Below the pieces are notes generated by a model. That model was given only the letters and a program-made list of their open reading frames with translations, ran no database searches and had not been told where the DNA came from. Position numbers and translations under genes: made by a program. From contig MU271407.1 of NCBI GenBank assembly GCA_021432655.1, positions 1-64,000 on the forward strand: DNA of 64,000 nucleotides. The letters are read 5' to 3'. Shown here piece by piece: positions 1 to 41,260 of this stretch (positions within the stretch are counted from its first letter, which is position 1; every line of letters starts with the position of its first letter). Source of the stretch: Atractiella rhizophila (Eukaryota).

Positions 1-597
1 GAGCAAGCAGCAGATCTCATGGCAAAACATTATGACAGAAAACGCGCACCGGCGCCCGAATATCATATCGGCGATTTCGTCTGGTTGAGCGCGAAAAACA
101 TCAAATCAACGAGACCTGTCAAAAAGTTGGACGACAAATGGCATGGCCCTTTTCGCGTTTTGCAAGTTTTGGGTCCCCTCAACCTTAAACTCGAGTTGCC
201 ATCCTCATGGAAGATACATCCAGTGTTCCACGTGGGCCTAATACGAAAAGTCAACGAAGACGACATCCCTGGCAGGGTTCAGCTGCCCAAACCACCTCCA
301 GAATTGGTGAATGGAATTGAAGAATGGGAAGTAGAAAAAATGGTTGATGGGAAATGGTTCGGTACCCGAAATAGAGTTTTCAAATATGGCGTTCGATACA
401 AAGGGTATTCACCATCTGAAGACGAGTGGATCAACATCACAGATCTAGAAAATTCCCAGGATGCTATAAAAGACTATCACACTGCACACCCTCTCGCAGT
501 TCGTCCCGATTCCATACCGAACTCCGCAACAAATCGCCCAAATACGCGTTTTCGTAACCTTCGACGAAAACGCGCTGAAGGGTCTTCCTCACTTTAA
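1..597 (+). CDS. pol: Ty3/Gypsy (chromovirus) Pol C-terminus: Tf2-type SH3-like domain plus chromodomain; 5' part lies outside the window
   Basis: The frame is open from base 1. GDFVWLSAKNIKSTRPVKKLDDKWHGPFRV...IHPVFHVGLI matches the post-integrase GPY/F and SH3-like region. EEWEVEKMVD...YGVRYKGYSPSEDEW...L matches a chromodomain. Confidence 0.93.
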   Translation, partial: EQAADLMAKHYDRKRAPAPEYHIGDFVWLSAKNIKSTRPVKKLDDKWHGPFRVLQVLGPLNLKLELPSSWKIHPVFHVGLIRKVNEDDIPGRVQLPKPPPELVNGIEEWEVEKMVDGKWFGTRNRVFKYGVRYKGYSPSEDEWINITDLENSQDAIKDYHTAHPLAVRPDSIPNSATNRPNTRFRNLRRKRAEGSSSL

Positions 598-1030
598 GGG
601 GCCCAACACCCCTATATGCCTTGCCGGGTGAAATCCTAGTCTTTGATACTTAGGTCAAGGCAAGGCGCCGACTTGTTCCTCAACGGACAAGTCGGCGACT
701 TGGTCGTTGGTGAGCCCATTCGCCGCCCGTCAAAGACGAATGCTCATTGCGTTCTCGCACCATCGCCAATGTCGCATTCATGAAAATTGTCCTCAATCGC
801 GAGGTCCCCTCCCCCTCACTTTAAGAGGACCTACTCCTCTACACGCCTCGCTGGGTGAATCCCTAGTCACATTGTTGAACATAGGTCTAGGCGAGGCGCC
901 GGTCTGTTCCTCAACGGACAGATCGGCGACCGGTTTGTCGGTGAGTTACTCGCCCCATTTTCACAAACGGTTGCTTACTGCACCAAAAACAATACCGGTC
1001 AAACTTCAAAAACCCCTCAATTGCGAGGTA
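588..1030 (+). ncRNA. Two tandem ~227-nt copies of a structured RNA motif in the retrotransposon 3' region
   Basis: Units start CTCACTTTAAG at 588 and 815. Five homologous helices occur in the same order, with compensatory substitutions between copies (see findings). Confidence 0.65.
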
Positions 1031-1573
1031 CACAACGGCTTCCCCTCATCCTACACTCTGTTCTGGTTTTGATGATTATTGTCTCCTATTTTTGCTTTTA
1101 CCTTTGCTTCCCCATGCTTGATTGCTTGACAACACATTCTTCCACAAAGAAGGCAGACCGGCGACGAGCACGCAAATCGCCGACCCGTTATACTGCGCGT
1201 TGTGTCCACGAGCGCGTGGCCCAGGCCTGTTTGGTTGCGAGCTCCAAAATAAGCTTGGGTAGCTAGTGGGAGGAACGCCTGAGAGTCTTCCCCTAGACAG
1301 GGGAGTGTGAGTCCTGCATCACCCTCTTTGCCATTGTTCTCCCCACTCACTACAATCCTTTTTGCCACTACGACAAATTTACATCTGTCGCCGCCCGGCA
1401 ATTCGCCGCTAATACGGAGACGCAAAACGCATACATTTTAGAGATCAAAATCACCACTCTGGACTGACTCCTCACTATCGCTGCTGCTTGAAGAAGAAAC
1501 GGAATATGCATCATAATTGGAATTATCATAGGCCTCCTGGGCCAACGAAGGGTTTAAGTCGCCCAGTCGAAAC

Positions 1574-2800
1574 TCAATTTCGCCGATACGACACATTTTC
1601 TGCAACTGGCGATGGGTCAGGTGCCCTACGATGCCTAAACAACATCTAGATAGTCAGACAGATCGCCGAAAAACGGATGAACTCACCCTACCCGTCACAT
1701 CGGCGATCACACCTTCCACAGCCGAATCTTCACTAGCCTCATCCTCCGCGGCTCGATCATCCTGCCTCCTTTTATACAATTCCATCTGCAACTCAGCGGC
1801 CTTCAGAGCGTCCGCCGCCGCTTGTGCATTCAATTTAGCGGCAGCTAGCATGGTTTGCGCGAAGTCCAGGCTGAATGCCTCAGAGTACAACCGGGCGGCG
1901 CTCAGCAACGATTGCGAAGGAGAATCCTCGTCGACATCCGAAATGTTCTCGTAATTGCTTTCGATGAAAGCCGATGGACGTTTTTTCCCGTCGCCGATAC
2001 GTTTAGGATGGAATGAAGTCGACATTACGACTAGCATCGAGAGTTCCCGCAAATATCCCAATGGCAAAACCTCACACATTTTTCGCGAACTATGACAACG
2101 CGAACAGACCCGTCCGAACGCGGTTGCGACATACCCAGCAGAGAAATCGCACACCTGCGAGTCGTTGTCACCCTTGGCCTTCTTTTTCGCCGCTTTGACA
2201 GGTGCCGCTCGAACCTTTCCAGTACAATTGCTACAGCGCTGCGTCCCGATGCTTGCCAACGTGGGAAGAATGCGCGCATTCGCCCCGAATAAGAGTACGA
2301 CGCCGTTTGTAGTTAGACCCGCTCGACCTAGAGCTTAACCAATAGTGCTGAGGAGCNNNNNNNNNNNNNNNNNNNNNNNNNTCGCCGATTCGGAAGGCTG
2401 AAACCCAAGTTTCACTGCTTCCTCCTCGACGAGCGCCGCTTGTCCGACCCAAAGCCGGAGTTCATCCCGCAATGCCTGTAAGGCTTCCACAGGCATCCGC
2501 AGCGGAAACGACAGAACCCGACCATCACCAAACCCTCTTGCGGCCTCATAAGCTGTTCGCACCTTCCCACCGGCGACGGGTTACACAACCACAATATACG
2601 AGACACGAAAAGCTCACCTCTTCTTGCACCTCATCACAAAATTTGACATACAGAGGATAACACCTTTTCCCCCACTCCAGCACATCGGCAAATCGCCCAA
2701 AGTTCACCTCTTTCGCCTTTTCCACGTCCCAATAAACAGTGCTCTCCCTCCTATCTTTGTTCGCCAGAACGAAGTCGAAGAGTTGCGCGTCGGTTGACAT
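1574..2800 (-). CDS. Spliced antisense accessory gene of the retrotransposon with a six-Cys Zn-cluster-like motif
   Basis: ATG at 2800 (MSTDAQLFDFV). Candidate GT-AG introns at 2617-2563, across the N gap (acceptor ~2329) and at 1686-1646. The 201-aa ORF contains CSNC-x24-C-x14-CSRC-x6-C followed by an Ala/Glu-rich helix. Confidence 0.55.
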
Positions 2801-3761
2801 TTTTGCAAGGAAAGAAGATGAGGACGATGAGGGTAGAATTCTGGAAAAGGTTGCGCCCAAGCAAGCCGCAAACCTTAACCTTAAAATTCCGTGACGAGAA
2901 TTTTACACTATAAGGTCAGAAATTTGGAGTGGTGGTCGTTTGTGCAGGCTTGCTACCCTACGCTATTTGTTGGACCGAAGATATACCATGTCTGTGCAAT
3001 CAGCTTGTGACCTGACTTGCAGAAAACGCGCTAGGAACTCCGACAAAAATTGTGCCCACGAAAATCGTTCCGCATTTGCGACAAGTTCGCGCAAAATCCC
3101 AGCAGCGAAACTTCTCCGCATCTCACTCGAATCGCAGCTAAGAAAACCGTAAATACATTTTCGCCAGTCTGCACCGTCGCCATTATTGGCCTGGTTAACT
3201 GTTCACACGTGTACACCTAAATATAGCGTAAAAATGTCCGAGCTGTATTGGGTACTCCTTTGAAAATTGAAGGTGGGGCAAGTCTGATACCTGCATATAG
3301 CTGCAACTTGGACATGTTTGGGGTACAGAAGGAGAAGCGTAAGTCACAGGTGATGGGTCAGTTCGCCATAAAAAGGGGCAAATGGTCCCACTATCTATAC
3401 AGGGAGAGGTAGTGCTGGTAACCTCAGCAATTGTAAAATTCGGTCATTTTAGTGTTTTGGACCTCGCACCACAGTTACGCAATTTCGATCGCATATCGGC
3501 GAGGTTTCCGCATCATAGTTGGTTGAAGCTTCCTAACAAGTCAGGTGCGAGTCGTGGGAATAGCTGGTCAGGAGAAAGGCGTAGAGTTTGGAACATCCTA
3601 TTCTAAGTGCTGGATGCGTTCTACACTCGACGGCAGTTCGCGCGTTACCATGGAGCCACAAACTTCCGACATTATTTAAGGGGAGCAGTTCTGAAAAGGC
3701 AAAGAGAGCATTCTTCTATTACCGCCTCACACTATGTCCGGTCGCCGATAGGCGATGCGTC

Positions 3762-4213
3762 TGTAGTGGAAGGTGAAACCTAAGTGAATCGTATACCACC
3801 AGAAGACTAACCTGTAGTGGAGGCAAACCTAAGAGAATACTCTCAGGTCATCCACCACTACGTCCCAATGCAGCTATATACATATCCCAAAACACCTCCC
3901 AGAAACTCTAACAGAAGATCCTTGAAACATATAAGATACCTAGATCAGGAAAGCAATAAAGGGAACACTCGGAAATAACATATACTGAGCAGTACAAGTG
4001 AGAAAAGATAACAGGGCAATAATGGCGACGGTGCAGACCGGCGAAATGTATAAGGTTTGCTGAGCGGCGATTCGAGTGAGAGGAGAGAAGGCGGCGTTCA
4101 GCGCGAACGTGCGCAAAGCGGCGATGTGTAGGCACTTGATCCTACGATGTACTGAAGTAGGTCACGTGACTCCGAATGGTACATTTCGGAAATGCGTAGG
4201 GGCAAGCCTGACA
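3762..4213 (-). repeat. LTR (~452 bp, TG...CA termini), inverted relative to pol
   Basis: The minus strand starts TGTCAGGCTTGCCCCTACG and ends CCACTACA. It has an internal direct repeat of the terminus (TGTAGTGGA at 3762 and 3813) and is homologous to the noisy plus-strand copy at 2941-3320. Confidence 0.6.
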
Positions 4214-5059
4214 CCTATCCAGCATGATACAGATCCTCTAAATCCACCTCGTCATCCCCCTCTGCTTCCAACTCCTTCAACATGTCTTCCATCATATGGC
4301 ACAGAACACAAGGTCATCGCCATCAACCAGACCAAGCAACCGGTCGATTTCGGCTATGGAAAGTGAATGAGAAGGTGGCGGGTAGTCAATGGGCATTGAA
4401 TGGAGTGAAGGCGTCACTCGGAGGTCTTTGGGTATTGGACGGAGGTCTGGAGGTGGCGGAGGGATTGTGAAGTGTGGAGGATGAGGATGCTGTGATGGGG
4501 ACAAGGATGGCGACTTTGTCGCCACACACTTCTCACCAGTCTTCTTTGTTGCATGAGAGCCTTCGCATGGGGCAAGTTCCTTTGCAACAAGTATTTGCCG
4601 CTTTTCCTTTCGTTTTGCTTGGCGACCGGCTTGAAGCTTGAGGATTTTGGCTTTCTGAGATAGGGTTGGGTATCCTTTGCCCATCATAAATATGTTACTC
4701 AAAGGCAAGGGGTTCACAAAGCATGCAAAGTGGCTGACAAAGTTTCGTCACAAGGTTGCAAAAGGTGTTTTAGAGCCGATATCCGACCGCTAGAAGCCGT
4801 TCAGCCAAATTTAATCGGCTATATACGCGCCGAACAGGCTACTTTCAGCAATTTGCAAGCAATTCACAACTTTCTGAAATGTTCGGAATGTGATTTGAAA
4901 GTGCTCAGCAGGAAATCAAGTTATCAAAATTCTGTCTTACAGGTGCATCTTATAGGTGTCAATAAGCTATCTGTATGACAAATAGTGCATTGGAGCTTTT
5001 TTCACTACAGACTTTTTGTTGTGTATTTTAGGTTGGGACTAGGCATCCTGCACCATACT

Positions 5060-20886: not shown

Positions 20887-22797
20887 ATGGGAGATGCTGG
20901 ATTGTCAGTTTTTTCTCTCAATCCGAGCAAAAGAAGAAATTTTGACGTGTTTTGAGGGCAGTTTCAAGGGGACCTCCATGGACCAGGTTCGTGCCATTTC
21001 CTTTGACAAGACAACTCATACGAATCTGAATGCCTCAACTACAGGATGTCCGTTTTACGGACAAGGAAAAGAAGCTGCTGAAGAGCATGAAGTTTCCACC
21101 TTCTTTCGAGAAAAAGGTGCGCTTCTACCCAAGTTGACGAGATAGGAGGATGGAGCGTTTGGTGGGCGAAAGGTCGATATGCGCAAGGTCGAAGTGTCCG
21201 TCATGAAGCCTTGGGTGACCAAGAAGGTCTCAGAGCTGCTGGGATTCGAAGATGAGGTCGTCGCGGAGTACGTCAATGGCATATTAGAGGATACGGAGAA
21301 TCCAGTGAGTGCTTTGTCTTTTCGACGTACGGGGCGGCATCTAGAGCTTGGATGATTGTTTTTCTCTTCTAACTATCTCAAGCCGCCAGTTGGGTCGCGT
21401 TCTGTTGCTGATACCGTCATTCCACCTAGATTTAACGCGAGTATGCCACAGACATGTCCCTCATCGCAGTCAAGTTGTGAGGCGCTTATTGCATCCTTTT
21501 GCTCTCCTTCTCTCCTTACTTTTCTTTTACTCACTCTTAGTGGCGCAGAATGAACAATACTGATTCCTCTCCGTGCTTTCTTTCAGATCGTCGACCCAAA
21601 GAAGATGCAGATCAACCTCACCGGTTTCCTCGAATCCAAAACCTCCGCCTTCATGTCTGAACTCTGGCAGCTCCTCCTCTCCGCCCAAGAGTCGCCACTC
21701 AAGGTTCCAGCTCAATTCATAGAAGAGAAGAAGGAGGAGATGAGGAAGAGGAAGGAGATGGAGGAGCGGAAAGCACGCGTTCTGGAACAGCGTGCCAAAG
21801 CTGGACATCCCGTGCGTATTCCCACATCATCCACTCACCGCTGGGAGATTTCGCTGACTGCTTGCCAATTGCGAAGGTCCCTCCGAAGCCTGAACCCGCT
21901 CTTGTTGATCAAGACGTCAGACGTTCTCCGCCCCCTCACCCCCGCGACAGGGAACGTCATGCTCCACGACGGTCTCCTCCTCCGCGAGAAAGAGAAAGGG
22001 ACAGGGACAGGGACAGAGGCTATGGAGATCGTCGTCGGTCACGTTCTCCACCTCGAAGACGTCGCACTCCCTCCCCGCCTCCCAGGCGGAGGCGTCCACC
22101 GCCAAGAGGGAGATCTCGATCCTACAGTCCGATGGATAGGGACAGATCGTCTTCGAGGGAAAGACCTAGAGGGAGGGATAGATCAAAGACTCCAGTTGGG
22201 AGGAGGGGTGACACGGATGACTCGCGCAGCAGGAGCAGGAGCAGGTCACCTCCCAGGAGACGAGAGGTGGGAAGAAGCAGGAGGGATGGTGGAAGAGGTA
22301 GGAGTCGGAGCAGGAGCAGGAGCAGAGATAGAAGGCGGGCACAAGAACGACGAAGGAGCAGGAGCAGGAGCAGAAACAGGAGCGTGGAGCCGCCAAGGAA
22401 GAGAGTCAGAACGAGGAGCAGGAGTCCAAGTCGCGATGCACGGCGGACGAAGAAGTCTCCCGACGGAGACGAGAGCATGAGGAGCCCATCTGCTTCCCCT
22501 AGATCCCCGGCCAGAAACGAGCGAGGAGCTAGGAGGAGTGAAGAGTATTCTCCCCGATCTCCCGTAGATGAGAAGAACAAGGAAGTCAGTAAACCGAAGG
22601 ATAAGCTGGAGGGGTCGAGATGGGCTAAGGAAGATGACGATGAGGAGATGGATGATCGCGAAAAAGTTCGTTCCCCTCTCATCAGTCCGAATTGACAAAC
22701 TAAGAGCAGATAGAATCATCGACGAGAAAGTGAGCTCAAAGAAGGTTTGTTGAAGGAAAAGGTGAAGAGGTCGAGAAAGAGTAAGGGGGAAAGCTGA
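20887..22797 (+). CDS. SRRM1: PWI-domain Ser/Arg-repetitive splicing co-activator (SRm160/SRRM1-like)
   Basis: Spliced N-terminus MGDAGFFKGTSMDQDVRF...VMKPWVTKKVSELLGFEDEVV...DPKKMQINLTGFLE...FMSELWQLLLSAQ, followed by a long RS/RP-rich tail. Confidence 0.92.
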
Positions 22798-23143
22798 GTG
22801 TTGCTCGGTCTTCTGTTAGCATTCGTCTCACATAATTTGAAAGTTCTTTGTATCCAGTCACCTAATCAGAGCCAATGGGTTGGAAATGGATTGGTCATTA
22901 TTTCATTCCCTCTCGTAACCTGACCCATACACTCCATCCTAAAGAGAATCTGAACGCCAGCGAGTCCCCAAGTAGAAAAGATACGATGACAAGAAAGGAA
23001 ACGTTCATATCAGAAAGCGGGGGGAGAGAACAGTTGCAAGAACAGATGGAATCGTTATTATGTGATTTGAGTATTGGATTGTGGAGGTAAATGGATAAAT
23101 TATCCCCTCATTTCGTCTGGTTTGATGGAGAAGCGACCTTCTT

Positions 23144-25478
23144 TTATGAAGATGTGCTCTCATCGTCGTCCTTTTTCGCGCTCGGCTCTTTCATCCCTGT
23201 TTTAACTTGCACAACCTGCAAGGACGATTCAATTTCAAATTTTCACAACAATGGGGAGACGCACCTCGAAAATTTTCAACATCTTCCTCCTGGCTCCTAG
23301 GGCCGCAACTCCTTTAGCTTCCAGCTGAGCGTCATCCATGACGACCATGTCCTTCCAGGTCATGCCTTGGAAATTATCAGTATACTGCAACGAACAAGGC
23401 ATCGTCAGATTTATGTTTCCACGAGTTGGAGCGGAACGAACTTTATGCAACCTCAAGCTCCTGAGCCACCCTGGTACATCGTTCAAAAGGTTCATGTCGA
23501 TAGCCTCCTCTGGATTCGCTCCGGAACCTGCGACAACTGGCTTGTTTCCACTTCGATTATTATCCCTTCCAGGGCTCCTCCTATTCGCTCCCATACCTCC
23601 CATTCCCATCATTCCCATACCTCCCATTCCCATTCCCATACCCATCCCAAGACGACCAGGGGACAGTCCACCACCCATCATTCCCATTGCAGCTTGCATA
23701 TTCTGCAATTGCTGAAGCTGTTGAACTTGCTGTTGAGCCGCCAGCAAGTTCATCATAGCTTGATTCGGACTGAGACCTCCCATGCCCATGCCTCCCATTC
23801 CCATTCCCATTCCACCCATCGCAAACATGGACGAATCGTCGCTTATGCCACTGCCCGTTCCCGACATGGCACCAGGGCTCAAGAGACCAGACCTCCAATT
23901 ATTCTGCGCCTGGATAGCTGCCGCCTGAAGACCGGGAGGGAGAGGAGAGTTGTTAGAATTCGCCACCGAGTTCGCGGCGGACGGTCTCCTGTTACCGCCA
24001 AACGAGTTTGAGTCGTACATCCCACTGAGAGCGCCACCGCCCATGGAGAGTTGCATGGAATGTGGCACGTTCGCGCTGCCGTTTCCGTTCGAGGATCCAC
24101 CGATGGTGCGTGCGTTCCTCCTGAACTTCCTGGCATCATCCAGTGTGAATCCCTCCTTCTTCCCATTTTCCTTGCTCGCTCCAGAATCTCCTCCCGTCGC
24201 TTTGCCCCAATCTCCAGCACCGCCGAGCTTTGAGTTGACCGATCCCAGGTCCGGAGTATGATTATTGAACATGGGAACCATAGGAGTATTGACCATAGAC
24301 GCCCAGTTCCCGCCAACAATAGGCGACAGCTGATCCTCCAACTTCATGCCTCCTGCCCTCACAGTCGCCACCTGAGGGCTGAGCATTCCATTGGGGAACG
24401 CATTGCCCACCGTCAACGTCTGTCCGCTTCCGGTGGCCGCTGTTTCAGCTGCAGCTTCGACAGCAGCGGACGGTTCGGGGCTCTTCCTATCCGCGTCATT
24501 CCAGAGCTTTTCGTCCTTCAACAGAGCCGGCGCGGAGATCCTATTCGCTTGCGCCTTGTTCAATTTCGCTCGTTGTTCGGCAAGGGTTGCAGCTGGATCT
24601 TCAGCCTGGACGGCGGGGCTGCGGTTCGTGTTCGCGTTCGGGGAGAGATGCTCGCCTGCTCCGAGGGATTGACGACCGGCTGCTGAAAAGTTGCGGGAGG
24701 ACGGAGACGGTGGAATGGGTACGGGTGACTTAAGACCCATTTGAGCTAGCTTGGCTTCCATTTGCGCTTCCATTGACGCTTCAGTTGATACACCTGTCAG
24801 CAAAGTCATCTTTGAGGAAAGATAAGACGAACCCTGAGCAGGATTGGCAGGGGAGAGGAGAGCGGTCATAGGATCGGCCCTGTTCATCTGCTGGAGGACT
24901 GTTAGGAAGAATCGGATCTGGACCTGTGTGCAGTTCTGGATTAGAGAGTAGAGAGCAGCTGTACGTTCGGCTTCCGAGAGAACTTTGAACCATTGCTCGA
25001 TGGCGCTCAGCTCTTCTTTGAAATTAGGGTCTAGAGAAGCAGCCGCCATCTCCTCCAAAGTGGCTTCATAATTTTGGAGATCTTCAAACCATTTATCGAT
25101 CGCTTCGGCTAACGACCGGACAGAGGTCATTCACTTCCATTTCTAAGCAAAAAAAGGTGGCGCACATTCCGGAGACACAAAATTTCCCAATCCTCCACCA
25201 CCCAATCCCAACATCTCAGAACTGGGCCTTCCTCTCCCTCCGGGACTCATAGGGAAAGGACTTCCAGCTCCGGCAGCGATATTGAGGGATTTCCCCACGT
25301 CCACGGACGACCGAAGTTTGTTCGGTGCTGGGCTGAGTGCAGGAGCAGGGGAGGGAGAGGTGGAATTGCCGGAATGGGAGTGCGAGTGCGCGTGCTTCGA
25401 GGGAGAGAGCTTGGAGGACGGGGCAGAGTTGGGGTTGTTGCTGGGCGAGGGACTCTTGTTCGGTGTGAGGGAGGCCAT
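23144..25478 (-). CDS. VTS1: SAM-domain RNA-binding protein Vts1/Smaug
   Basis: ELSAIEQWFKVLSEAERTAALYSL...QIRFF and SAM domain DVPGWLRSLRLHKYTDNF...GVAALGARRKMLKIFE, with a Met/Gly-rich low-complexity middle. Confidence 0.93.
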
Positions 25479-32480: not shown

Positions 32481-34597
32481 ATGTATGCTGCACTCTGGCT
32501 TGCCATCCTGCTCACCACCGCCAAATCATCCCCAACTCCAACGCCCACTCCATCGACATCGCTCCATACGCCAGCCACCAATCCATCGGCTAAACTCCTC
32601 CGGCGATCCAATCAACGACAGACATCCCTCTCCTCCTACGCCCAGTCAGTCCGCCGCTCCATACGCACCCGCTATTCCCCCTCTCAGGTTCAATCTCCAT
32701 CTCAATCACACAAATCTCGAGATGTGGGTACAGAGGAAGTGGAAAAGGAGAAGGAGAACATGAGCAAACGCGCACCGTACGGTTCCATCGACCTGTACAA
32801 CGCTGGCGACGTATCCTACTTCTCCCAACGTCCGTCTGTTCTTTCTTCCCTTCTTCCTCTGTCTTGCTGACCAAAGAATGAACAATACAGTCGAGTTAGG
32901 CTCGCCTCCCAAACCGTTCTTCGTTCTCCTCGACACGGGATCCTCTGACCTCTGGATCGCCTCCTCGACCTGTTCCGAGGACGACGGGTGTCCCGAAGGA
33001 GTGGAGCGGTACGTTGGAGGGAGTGAAGAGATAGAGAAGCCATTCGAGGTCAGTATCCATTTTGACTTCCGTCCTCCGCATTGTGTGTCATCCTGCTGCC
33101 TTCCAATATTTCAAGAAGTCCCTCTTGCAGCCTGGTTTCTTCAACCAAACTGCCTACCGGAACTAGGGCTGATCTCTTCGTTCGCTTCCAGATAACGTAT
33201 GGCTTTGGTACTGCCCGCGGACACCTCGTGAAAGACAGAGTAGCGATAGCAGGCCACGCAGTCGGGAACCAAGTCTTTGGTCCGTCCCCCCTAATCCCCC
33301 CAACACAACAACCAACAAAAAAAAAACCCCCCCCGAACCCCCCAAAACCGGGCCGCCCCAACCCCCCCCCACCGGAATCCCCCGGAACTTCCTTCTATTA
33401 TCCGACTCGAGAACGGTGCGACTGACGGATGAATGGAAAGGTCTAGGCTTCCGGTCCATCGCCCACTCTGGAGCCGTACCCCTGGTCGAGGCACTCGCAG
33501 AGAGTGGGACGCTCCTTCAGCCCTTGGTGTCGTTCGCCATGACGCGATCCATCGACTCGCCTAGTAAGTTCTGCATCCACATCCTTTCCTCTGAATGCAA
33601 CGGGATGGATGAAATACTGACGAGTTAACCTCGGTGCAACAGACGGAAAAGCGGTGCATCCTGGAGGCGTCATGACTTTAGGAAGGACAGAGGAAGGCCT
33701 ATATGAGGGAGAGATTGAGTGGTTCGATGTGTTATTGGATGAAGGAGAGGAAGAACCTGGATACTGGGCCGTCCAGTTAGAGTCCATCGGGATCGGGGTG
33801 GGAGGAATTGGTGAGAGAGTGGAGGTCGAGGTCAAAACAAAGGCAGTGGTTGATACGTGAGTTCTCGCTTTCAATTTTTCTTCGAAAGAAGACGAGCTGA
33901 TGCGGGGCATGATTGGCGCAGTGGCACGTCCCTCATCGGCGGGCCGCCGTCCCAGATCGAAGAGTTGTACCGACACATCTCTGGCGCGAGGAGGATCACG
34001 GACGATTCGGCTTTCGAAGGCTTCTACGAGCTTCCCTGCTCTCTCTCCCTCAACCTTTCCTTCTCCTTCTCCTCCACCGCACCCTCAGCGGCCTCAACCT
34101 CAACCCCTTATCCTCTCAATCCTCTGGACCTCAACCTAGGATACCGCTCCTCAACGAACGACGGCACCCGCTACTGTCTCAGTGGCATATATGCACATGA
34201 CCTCTCCACCGCTCAAGGGATACTAGGGGACGCGTGGCTGAAAAACGTCTATTCCGTCTTCCGCTACTCCACCCCGTCCAGCACAGACACCTCAACAGCT
34301 TTCAATTCAGAGTTCGATTCAGACTTTAATGGATCCGCAAATGGAATTGCGAATGGGAGGGGAGCAGCGATCGGGTTCGCGCGCCTAAACGAGACGGCAA
34401 TGGTGGCATTGGAAGAGGACAAGGATTCGTTGGATGTGCTCGACGGGGTAAGCGTGAGTGTGGTCGGGTGGCCGCGGCCGACGAATGAGCTTGCGGAGGC
34501 AGGTGGCAGCACTAGTAGTTTGCGAATTGGTAGAGGGTTAGTGTGTATATGGCTCATCCTTTTGCTGGGAATGCCTTGGGTTCTGCTGTTTACGTAG
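32481..34597 (+). CDS. Secreted pepsin-family (A1) aspartic protease with a C-terminal hydrophobic anchor
   Basis: Signal peptide; catalytic motifs VLLDTGSSDLWI and AVVDT/GTSLIGGP; ILGDAWLKNVYSVF; hydrophobic C-terminus. One exon near 33280-33400 is unreadable. Confidence 0.92.
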
Positions 34598-39114: not shown

Positions 39115-41260
39115 ATGTCTTCCGTTGAGCTCATAAATCGTACGCACCCTCACTTCCGCCTCTGTTCTTGGCTCACTGCTGGGGTCACGCAGCAAAGGCA
39201 GAGTCCATCCGACGCTCTCAGGCCTTACAGGTCAACACCACCGGAGCGATTGGTCTAGCCAACGTTGTCAGGTCCAATTTAGGTAATCCTTCCATCTCTT
39301 CACTCTCCCTTAATCAGATTTCTGACACCAATGGTTTTCAGGTCCACGCGGGACGCTTAAGCTCCTTGTATCAGGATCAGGCGACTTAAAGCTCACGAAA
39401 GATGGAAAGAGCCTCCTAACTGAGATGCAGATCCAGAACCCGACCGCTTCGATGATTGCGCGAGCGGCAGTGGCGCAGGACGAAGCGACGGGTGACGGGA
39501 CAACTAGCGTGGTGCTCCTCGTTGGAGAGATACTCAAGTTGGCAGAGAGGTACACAAGCGAAGGCGTGCATCCAAGAGTTTTGGCGGACGGAGTGGAGAG
39601 TGCGAAGGTGGAGGTGGTCAAGGTATCTCCCATATTTCATTATCCAACGCCCCCTATCCTATTCCATTTTATTCCAGCTTTCACTTGACGGTGAAAGGAC
39701 GCTAATATGTGCACCAGTTCCTGGACAAATTTGCCGTTCCCCAACCGAATCCCACACACGCCTTCCTCACCTCCGTCGCATACACGACCCTAAGCACCAA
39801 GCTGCACTCTCGTCTCTCCACGCTTCTCGCACCCTCCCTAGTCGACGCCGTCCAGACCATCCGGCAGCCTTCCGCTTCCTCTTCGGACGGAGCAGGAGGA
39901 TATGAGCCCATAGATTTACATATGGTCGAGGTCATGAAGATGCAGCATAAGACCGATACCGATACTAGGCTCATCAAGGGTCTCGTGCTTGACCATGGTG
40001 GGAGACACCCGGATATGCCCAAGAGGGTCGAGAATGCTTTCATCCTCACTTTGAACGTCAGTCTAGAATACGAGAAAACGTGAGTCCCCTCACTGTTCCC
40101 TGCTCCCTTAAGATCTCGAATGCTAATGTATCGATGGATGGGGTTGTGCAGTGAGGTGAACTCTGGCTTCTTCTACTCATCCGCGGCCCAACGCGAAGCG
40201 CTGGTAGAGTCCGAACGTCGATTCGTCGACTCCAAACTTCAAAAGATCGTCGCCCTCAAACGACTCGTCTGCGACTCCTCACTCGATAAAGACGGAAATC
40301 GGACCGATGGTGGCAAAGAGAAGCGATTCGTAATCGTGAACCAGAAGGGTATCGACCCACTCTCTCTCGACGTCTTGGCCCGCGAAGGCATCCTCGCCCT
40401 CCGTCGAGCGAAGAGGAGGAACATGGAACGTCTCCAGCTCAGTTGTGGAGGGACGGCGATGAATTCGGTGGACGATTTGACGCCTGAATGTCTTGGATGG
40501 GCTGGATTGGTGTACGAGCAAACGCTTGGAGATGAGAAGTTTACATTCATCGAGGAGGTCCGGAATCCGAAATCCGTCACCCTCCTTCTCAAAGGTCCGA
40601 ATGCGCACACCATCACTCAGATCCACGAGGCTATCCGGGACGGATTGAGGAGCGTAAAGAATGTTTTGGAGGACGGAAAGATCGTTCCTGGCGCTGCAGC
40701 CTTCGAGGTCGCTGCTTGGTGGCATCTCATGAACGATAAAGAGGTGCAGAAGAAGTATAAAGGACGCGCAAGACTCGGGATTCAGGTCTTCGCGGAAGCT
40801 CTGCTCGTCATCCCTAAAACGTTGGCCATGAACGCAGGCCTGGAAGTGCAGGAGGTTACTGTGGGCTTACAGGTCTGTTTTTGTGCTCTTGTTTCTCTGC
40901 ATTTCTGTAGATGAGATTTGATTGTTTTCTCAACATAGGATGCATATGAGGAAGGCACACCTGTTGGCTTGGACTTACAAACAGGCGAACCGATGGATCC
41001 TGTCATGGAGGGAATATGGGACATTTATCGCGTCAAGCGACACCTCATCCACTCTAGGTTCATTTCTTCCTCTGTCCTCCTGCAGCATCTCTGACTTAGT
41101 GGACGATGTAGTGCTGTCATTGCTGGAAATCTGCTAATCACTGATGAGTTCGTCTTTCTTTGCTTTCTTCTCCTTCAGGTGGGGCCATATTCATTGTTCG
41201 GATAGAATGATGCGTGCGGGAAGGAGCTCGTTGAAGGCTGAAGGGCCTCCGGGAATGTAA
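39115..41260 (+). CDS. CCT6: Chaperonin CCT/TRiC subunit zeta
   Basis: [70 protein letters not shown] and MRAGRSSLK. Confidence 0.98.

Follow-up and report, generated by a model that had tools for sequence, protein, structure and literature searches.

A tandemly duplicated multi-helix RNA module predicted downstream of a chromovirus pol gene in Atractiella rhizophila

The pol end and the two direct units

The first 64,000 nucleotides (nt) of the forward strand of contig MU271407.1 (NCBI GenBank assembly GCA_021432655.1) of the basidiomycete Atractiella rhizophila (hereafter 'the window') open with the 3' end of a chromovirus pol gene, directly followed by two diverged direct units. An initial annotation, made from the letters alone, had described these units as a tandem-duplicated, multi-helix RNA motif with covariation. 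Here, we report a computational follow-up, in which the duplicated fold is found to be real and beyond chance for the first three helices (H1-H3) of each unit. The features discussed are collected in Table 1.

The open reading frame (ORF) at the left edge, on the plus strand and open at the window start, terminates in a TAA at 595-597. Its last 198 residues match Pfam SH3_Tf2-1 (E 2.2e-16) and Chromo (E 3.3e-07), i.e. an integrase SH3-like domain followed by a chromodomain. The best long relatives of this end (six proteins at E<=0.001 among 568 candidates) are full reverse transcriptase-RNaseH-integrase polyproteins of Ty3/gypsy type, at 35-42% protein identity, which is too distant for a comparison of untranslated regions (UTRs). 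By its domains and polyprotein relatives, therefore, this reading frame is the pol end of a Ty3/gypsy chromovirus, and the motif does begin at a chromovirus pol stop, as had been proposed.

The two units lie directly behind pol at a spacing of 227-231 nt and share 77-81% identity over their first ~130 nt: in a blastn alignment of 132 nt, 587-714 and 814-945 are 77.3% identical, and a repeat search returns copies of 80-81% identity at spacings of 227 and 231 nt, which bears out the diverged ~227-nt tandem units of the initial annotation. A MAFFT alignment covers the whole units, the second halves aligning poorly, and Tandem Repeats Finder left the unit pair unreported at its thresholds. The first ~11 nt of unit 1 are the last pol codons and the stop; the leader that spans them is identical at 12 of 12 positions in unit 2, where it is non-coding. 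The word CCUCA occurs seven times in 587-1044 (three times per unit), compared with 1.9 times per kb in the whole window.

Right behind unit 2, TCCCCTCATCCTACACT at 1040-1057 bears a weak likeness (local alignment score 20) to the spacer and leader that precede unit 2; judged by its letters, this could be what is left of the start of a third unit, or of the short repeats by which the duplication was mediated. Candidates dropped in this region were a coding ORF at 707-1072 (it has a TTG start and crosses both units out of phase), a stop-codon readthrough signal (only 13 extra codons precede the next stop) and a -1 frameshift site (CUUUAAG is no canonical slippery heptamer).

Table 1. Features at the left end of the window, in order of position; MFE, minimum free energy; LTR, long terminal repeat
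Feature	Position	Strand	Basis
pol 3' end: integrase C-terminal SH3-like domain and chromodomain	1-597	+	ORF, Pfam, polyprotein relatives
Unit 1 of duplicated RNA module	586-813	+	alignment; MFE -79.8 kcal/mol, z -4.72
Invariant leader CCUCACUUUAAG	587-598, repeated 814-825	+	alignment, repeat search
H1, predicted hairpin AGGGG/CCCCU (unit 1), AGAGG/CCUCU (unit 2)	597-613 / 824-840	+	consensus fold
H2, predicted 8-bp outer stem, internal loop, inner CCUAG.. stem (635-654)	618-666 / 845-897	+	consensus fold
H3, predicted 12-13-bp hairpin, invariant loop CUCAAC	666/667-697 / 897/898-928	+	consensus fold
H4 domain, unit 1: basal stem GAC-UUGG / CCAA-U-GUC, invariant GGUGAG, variable apex	697-775	+	z -1.96
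H5, predicted hairpin CCUC-aauygc-GAGG (aaucgc in unit 1)	791-804 / 1015-1028	+	alignment, unit folds
Pyrimidine-rich inter-unit spacer UCCCCUCCCCCUCAC	805-819	+	read from sequence
Unit 2 of duplicated RNA module	813-1045	+	alignment; MFE -78.4 kcal/mol, z -4.65
H4 domain, unit 2: basal stem GACCGGU-UUGU / ACAA-U-ACCGGUC	928-1000	+	z -2.86
Candidate polypurine tract AGGGGAG, then TGTGAG; possible 3' LTR start	1299-1311	+	purine-run scan, depth drop

Helices, covariation and fold stability

Applied to the two units, RNAalifold predicts a consensus of 51 pairs, and the 33 pairs of H1, H2 (outer and inner parts) and H3 are canonical in both. H1 has undergone one double change (G-C to A-U). H2 contains one double change (U-A to C-G) and one change from C-G to U.G; its internal loop carries the invariant segment GGGUGAA (626-632), its inner stem is CCUA/UAGG, and in this inner part the MFE and consensus predictions disagree. 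H3 shows two double changes (C-G to U-A and U-A to C-G) and a change from A-U to G.U, the three changed pairs being adjacent, in addition to a U.G pair common to both units. Every helix and compensatory change that the initial annotation had named for H1-H3 was recovered in place, as were the GGGUGAA segment, the CCUA/UAGG stem and the invariant loop of H3.

Covariation was tested on alignment columns 12-115 of the two paralogous units, which comprise 100 ungapped columns. The units differ at 23 of these, with 10 differences in the 66 paired and 13 in the 34 unpaired columns (Fisher p 0.013); none of the 33 pairs is broken, and the changes include four double compensations (one in H1, one in H2 and two in H3) and two changes to G.U. 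Under a null model of 23 random substitutions with the observed mix of transitions and transversions, freedom from broken pairs arose in 1 of 200,000 trials, and under one with 10 substitutions confined to paired columns its probability was 4e-5. With the most stringent null, in which 10 transitions fall on paired columns, the absence of any broken pair had P 0.0055, and P was 8.7e-5 when at least four double changes were demanded as well. All 10 changes at paired sites are transitions, set against four transitions and nine transversions at unpaired sites (Fisher p 0.0016), and such transition-only change is what stepwise compensation in RNA, by way of G.U intermediates, leaves behind. Comparison of the two sequences shows the pairing of H1-H3 to have been preserved since the duplication by compensatory, transition-only change.

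The predicted folds are also more stable than those of shuffled sequences: none of 200 shuffles was as good for either unit (Table 1), and the same was found for H1-H3 alone (z -5.79 in unit 1 and -4.72 in unit 2; 0/200 each). Within the H1-H3 consensus, unit 1 has a single G.U pair and unit 2 has three, the U.G pair conserved in H3 among them. Because these pairs become A.C mismatches on the minus strand, and because z-scores are weaker there, the plus strand (the sense of pol and thus of the genomic RNA) is the structured one; the initial argument from G.U pairs for that strand is borne out by these counts and by the stronger plus-strand scores.

Downstream of H3, the correspondence between the units becomes one of architecture. 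The middle helix of H4, GGUGAGY/GCUYAYU, has 7/7 pairs canonical in both units; the basal stems, each with a bulged U, are present in each unit's own fold and absent at the MAFFT-aligned columns, and the likeness of basal and middle helix was judged by eye, as architecture with no scored covariation. The GCGAC arm originally assigned to H4 shares a few bases with the 3' arm of H3, and H3 and H4 therefore compete at this junction. What stands of the long interrupted hairpin proposed for H4 is its similar architecture; its pairs are not kept column by column, and its GCGAC arm clashes with H3. The proposed H5 hairpin, in turn, is kept as a sequence and is thermodynamically undistinctive as a fold.

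H2, H3 and H4 abut without linkers, and C666 and G697 are each able to join either neighbouring helix. In both units, moreover, the leader word UCACUU (589-594) is complementary to GGGUGA (626-631), forming a possible pseudoknot, and an alternative, competing pairing of CUCACU with GGUGAG is equally available; both pairings are invariant and hence carry no covariation. A compact multi-helix fold with zero-nucleotide junctions and invariant unpaired motifs, closed by the UCACUU/GGGUGA pseudoknot, would be compatible with each unit being a new self-cleaving ribozyme or an exoribonuclease-stalling fold that yields stable 3' fragments. Viral exonuclease-resistant elements are typically duplicated in tandem, and neither type of unit would have a precedent among fungal LTR retrotransposons. 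We nevertheless regard this reading as very unlikely: the ribozyme and exoribonuclease-resistant RNA families in Rfam gave no match even at E up to 10, and the pseudoknot that would close the fold is without covariation, its leader being able to pair with GGUGAG instead.

Searches for known RNA families and for homologues outside this family of elements returned no relative in the collections scanned. In 400-1500, searched on both strands against Rfam 15 (whose families include pistol, hatchet and retroviral elements) at E<=10, four matches of 14.6-16.6 bits were obtained against thresholds of 41.5-84, all to unrelated families, and the whole window gave no match at gathering thresholds. This agrees with the earlier failure to match the motif to hammerhead, HDV-like, twister or ENE consensus motifs; the U-rich internal loop that, flanked by stems and together with a downstream A-rich tract, marks an ENE (the triple-helix poly(A) clamp of transposon and viral RNAs) is likewise absent from the consensus and MFE structures. 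Nor did ARAGORN recognise a tRNA-like cloverleaf in the units. A blastn search of 1-2340 against the window returned self and unit-to-unit matches only, and a covariance model of H1-H3 (R1), run on the window with filters off, found only the two units (131.8 and 128.2 bits), the next best match elsewhere scoring 8.2 bits and the minus-strand matches (12.6-24.5 bits) overlapping the units themselves. 

Pattern scans reached further afield. An H3 pattern of 20 specified bases occurred at seven metagenome loci, where likeness extended over only 24-31 nt around the pattern and was chance by blastn, at 17 loci in genome contigs, all in bacterial-titled records, and at none in viral contigs; a leader pattern occurred at two viral loci, without an R1 match at E up to 1. 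Over the 26 loci from these pattern scans, R1 scored at most 23.5 bits. Protein-guided scans of viral contigs, one with the pol end and one with an alignment, gave no relative, and a 14-mer scan of the same kind of contigs gave at least 115 stretches, too many to be specific, which were not inspected individually. Finally, a keyword search of open-access papers (chromovirus RNA structure, constitutive transport elements, UTR repeats, Ty3 packaging and Atractiella retrotransposons) returned no description of the motif.

Family copies and placement within the element

Sampled words of 400-1500 were found in the 10 sequencing runs listed, from eight studies; none of these runs is recorded as RNA. 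Two runs of one sample carry about half of the words and the other eight small shares, six of the latter being rhizosphere or soil metagenomes. Contigs of four runs were placed on 1-2300 at 80% likeness, and the 1119 contigs of one run (X1) that fall there indicate a high-copy family. The summed depth of X1 contigs is about the same over pol and over 598-924, and is lower and patchy past ~925. One rhizosphere metagenome contig (from run X3) spans 559-938 with 15 differences, and thus holds unit 1 and unit 2 up to H3; contigs of a second organism cover 452-748 (nine differences) and 881-1034 (19 differences and two gaps), and a contig of a third covers 813-947 with three differences. Neither a one-unit nor a three-unit form occurs among the three joints listed. 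The contigs show the two-unit arrangement to be the form seen in family copies from several samples.

Differences between the window and its family were compared at sites drawn from 40 of the 557 differing places. Among the eight best-supported places in 588-1045 at which essentially all contigs differ from the window, five are unpaired (602, 779, 781, 829 and 844). At 715 and 765, pairing survives either letter through wobble, and at 723 the T of the family (21 X1, two X4 and one X3 contigs) pairs with A736, completing an 8-bp apical stem of H4 (717-724/735-742) that is interrupted by the C of the window. These differences agree, anecdotally, with constraint on the helices. Contigs also have loose ends at 947, most copies differing from the window in the H4 apex of unit 2; from these ends and from the window letters absent from all family contigs, the window copy appears to be a somewhat diverged family member.

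Whether the units lie in an internal 3' UTR or in the U3 part of an LTR depends on where the LTR begins. Among purine runs of at least six in 560-1500, only that at 1299-1311 directly precedes TG, and the summed X1 depth falls about four-fold after ~1310. Run and depth drop favour an internal 3' UTR of about 700 nt (598-1305), which would open with the two units and be followed by the polypurine tract (PPT) and the LTR, and we lean slightly towards this arrangement. One contig joins 1307 to 1424, from which it follows that homology runs on past the candidate LTR start. An LTR start right after AAGGGG at 602 was dropped, there being no TG and the family sequence being conserved to at least ~1309. 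In either placement, the units belong to the 3' region of the genomic RNA.

If the units lay in U3, they could be a DNA-level repeat, namely a duplicated enhancer or promoter module whose palindromes are bound by dimeric transcription factors. The LTR start proposed above is a candidate only, the pol stop can lie close to the LTR in fungal elements, and tandem repeats in U3 are a classic form of retroviral enhancer. Moreover, TCGCCGA, a heptamer that forms part of the H3 stem, shows local enrichment on both strands, with 11 of its 13 window matches in 1-3750, the repeat-rich left end. The conserved G.U pairs, the transition-only compensation and the asymmetry between plus and minus z-scores, however, speak for RNA over duplex DNA; the sole purine run followed by TG lies downstream of both units; and X1 depth over 598-924 resembles that over pol instead of being at least twofold higher, which is a weak hint, contig depth not being copy number. 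We therefore hold a DNA-level repeat to be quite unlikely. As to the heptamer itself, two of its matches fall in the H3 stems (692-698 and 923-929), and its enrichment over the whole window is not significant (13 observed on either strand against 7.7 expected, with 7/100 shuffles reaching 13).

A role in reverse transcription is another candidate: the units could be the 3' part of a primer-binding site (PBS) that is bipartite, a partner in 5'-3' cyclisation (as in Ty3 and Ty1) or a context for plus-strand priming. Each unit opens with the invariant CCUCACUUUAAG followed by RGG, which yields a small purine tract, UUUAAGRGG, and the recurrence of CCUCA would fit a repeated pairing or recognition word; in Ty3, according to the accessible parts of two accounts, PBS segments in the 3' UTR pair with the primer tRNA (PMC4974528, PMC11381356). 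On the other side, the purine runs at the unit starts (AAGGGG and AAGAGGA) are only 6-7 nt long and have no TG behind them, and the strongly conserved features are helices rather than long single-stranded tracts. Any tRNA complementarity is putative, ARAGORN finding no tRNA gene in 1-5000 or in the whole window. Such a helper function is, in our judgement, unlikely.

Several further features were noted nearby. A conserved-looking hairpin (CGGCGA-12 nt-UCGCCG) at 1157-1190, in a block of high X1 depth (1156-1309), could represent a further structured element of this 3' region. A 201-aa ORF on the minus strand (1654-2259) has no Pfam match, and its sole protein relative is an A. rhizophila hypothetical protein (93% identity over 23% of the query); the region is also repeated in X1, and may be part of either the chromovirus LTR or a different repeat. 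The repeat-rich region downstream of the chromovirus contains an assembly gap (25 Ns at 2357-2381) and two adjoining pairs of inverted repeats (one of 35 nt with 94% complementarity, the other of 31 nt with 87%) at 3121-3193 and 4012-4081, with ~820-900 bases between them, which have the look of terminal inverted repeats, whether from a small DNA transposon or from a miniature inverted-repeat transposable element. Farther on, host gene fragments at 21605-25130, 33857-34597 and 40120-40914 encode a PWI domain, a Vts1-like RNA-binding protein with a SAM domain (631-aa ORF), an aspartyl protease and CCT6 (the exon at 40120-40914 being 98% identical to A. rhizophila CCT6), and accordingly the window belongs to an intron-bearing fungal nuclear genome.

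A possible cis-acting module and its known counterparts

The reading that we prefer, and to which we give about an even chance, is that of a plus-strand RNA module, duplicated in tandem within the untranslated 3' part of the chromovirus genomic RNA, which by analogy with retroviral elements would act as a protein-binding platform for the fate of the full-length RNA. Each unit would present H1, H2 and H3 as a contiguous, strongly paired array, followed by the looser H4 domain and the small H5 hairpin, and would display invariant single-stranded words in its loops: GGGUGAA (H2), CUCAAC (H3), GGUGAG (H4) and CCUCA. The initial annotation had proposed a selected cis-acting RNA of the plus strand for the motif as a whole, with export, packaging, dimerisation, stability, translation or an unknown ribozyme activity as candidate functions; for H1-H3, the unbroken pairs, the four double compensations, the transition-only change, the plus-strand z-scores and the two units in other samples uphold that proposal, and H4 and H5 uphold it much less.

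Several observations weigh against this reading. The covariation statistics are carried by two paralogous sequences, with a consensus structure partly derived from both, and the comparison as a whole is confined to these two units plus a few family-majority letters, within one family. When the MFE structure of unit 1 is used in place of the consensus, 29/33 H1-H3 pairs hold in unit 2, the discordant ones lying in inner H2, and in the H4-H5 half 10/22 pairs hold in the MAFFT alignment. Taken alone, H4 reaches z -1.96 (7/200 shuffles as good) in unit 1 and -2.86 (1/200) in unit 2, and H5 only -1.16 and -0.31. The minus strands also beat their shuffles (z -3.47 and -2.20, the latter with 4/200 shuffles as good). 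The 5' LTR lies beyond the window, so that a placement upstream of the PPT is a candidate and a U3 placement possible. Lastly, the adjacency of the three changed pairs in H3, a near-perfect palindrome, would in principle allow their origin in one templated mutation event and not in selection.

This last point leads to the view that the units have no present function, being an old tandem duplication (produced, for example, by template switching of reverse transcriptase between short CCUCA repeats) of a hairpin-rich stretch, in which apparent compensation reflects templated mutation within inverted repeats and chance. The adjacency in H3 is what one such event gives; H4 and H5 show decay; the units are flanked by short CCUCA-type repeats, with the weak unit-start remnant behind unit 2; and tandem repeats are common in retrotransposon UTRs, as far as the available portion of one account goes (PMC3648361). 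The compensations, however, occurred independently in three separate helices, and H3 retains both a G.U at a changed pair and a conserved U.G, unlike a perfect templated copy. Paired columns change less than unpaired ones, and by transitions only; the loops and the 12-nt leader have stayed invariant despite 23 differences per 100 H1-H3 columns; and the two-unit form has been kept across family copies from several samples. An absence of function is, on balance, improbable.

On the preferred reading of a duplicated protein-binding platform, the module would steer the post-transcriptional fate of the unspliced full-length RNA. It could promote export from the nucleus or accumulation in the cytoplasm, keep a long 3' UTR from being degraded, help Gag to recruit the RNA into particles, or combine these effects, and duplication would give twice as many binding sites. 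For such a long 3' UTR, protection against decay directly downstream of the stop codon is conceivable, the stability element of Rous sarcoma virus (RSV) being what we take to be the analogue.

The interest of such a module would lie in its setting. To our knowledge, almost no cis-acting RNA signals have been described for LTR retrotransposons other than Ty1 and Ty3 of yeast; for Ty3 itself, the signals in the 3' region for localisation and packaging are not precisely defined in the part of the account available (PMC11381356). If the reading is correct, the fold would provide a defined RNA handle on the export, protection or packaging of a fungal retrotransposon RNA. It sits in a high-copy, probably recently active chromovirus of a root-associated basidiomycete, and the natural duplicate offers a built-in comparison for mutational tests; its wider impact would be modest if the fold were confined to one family in one genus. 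We consider it a candidate for a new RNA family, of a general kind already known and to date seen in a single retrotransposon family.

Among known systems of that kind, the constitutive transport element (CTE) of Mason-Pfizer monkey virus (MPMV) is, like the module proposed here, a structured RNA that acts in cis close to the 3' end of an unspliced retroelement transcript, and is described, in the material accessible, as recruiting a host export factor via two repeated sites. The CTE folds into a single long hairpin whose two identical internal loops are related by rotational symmetry, and it directly binds NXF1/NXT1, which correspond to Mex67/Mtr2 in fungi. The chromovirus units, by contrast, are direct repeats, each predicted to form several separate hairpins; in neither unit was an MPMV-type CTE architecture found, both folding as arrays of separate hairpins.

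The closest functional analogues would be the direct repeats (DRs) of RSV and avian leukosis virus (ALV). According to the part of the literature available, RSV carries two copies of the DR, which forms a hairpin and acts in cis on export and cytoplasmic accumulation and, historically, on packaging (PMC9143442). Both systems have two direct copies of a structured RNA, which lie in the 3' UTR in RSV and would do so in the chromovirus on the preferred reading, the DR being of ~100-nt scale in the same source (PMC9143442). They differ, as compared by description, in that the copies reported here are adjacent instead of flanking a gene, consist of ~230-nt multi-helix units and belong to a basidiomycete chromovirus.

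Within the superfamily of the chromovirus itself, Ty3 has cis functions in the 3' untranslated part of its genomic RNA, with UTR sequences required for retrosome localisation and packaging, as far as the accessible sections of the sources extend (PMC4974528, PMC11381356); its 3' UTR, however, is given there as 214 nt long, and its known 3' elements as short tRNA-complementary segments, with no duplicated multi-helix fold in those sections. Plant Ty3/gypsy elements with UTR repeats (CRM-derived) share, if the units are internal, the tandem repetition between pol and LTR in an element of chromovirus type (PMC3648361, available portion). Those repeats are described in that portion as DNA-level arrays that grow into satellites, with no claim of RNA pairing, whereas the A. 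rhizophila element carries two old, diverged copies with compensated helices.

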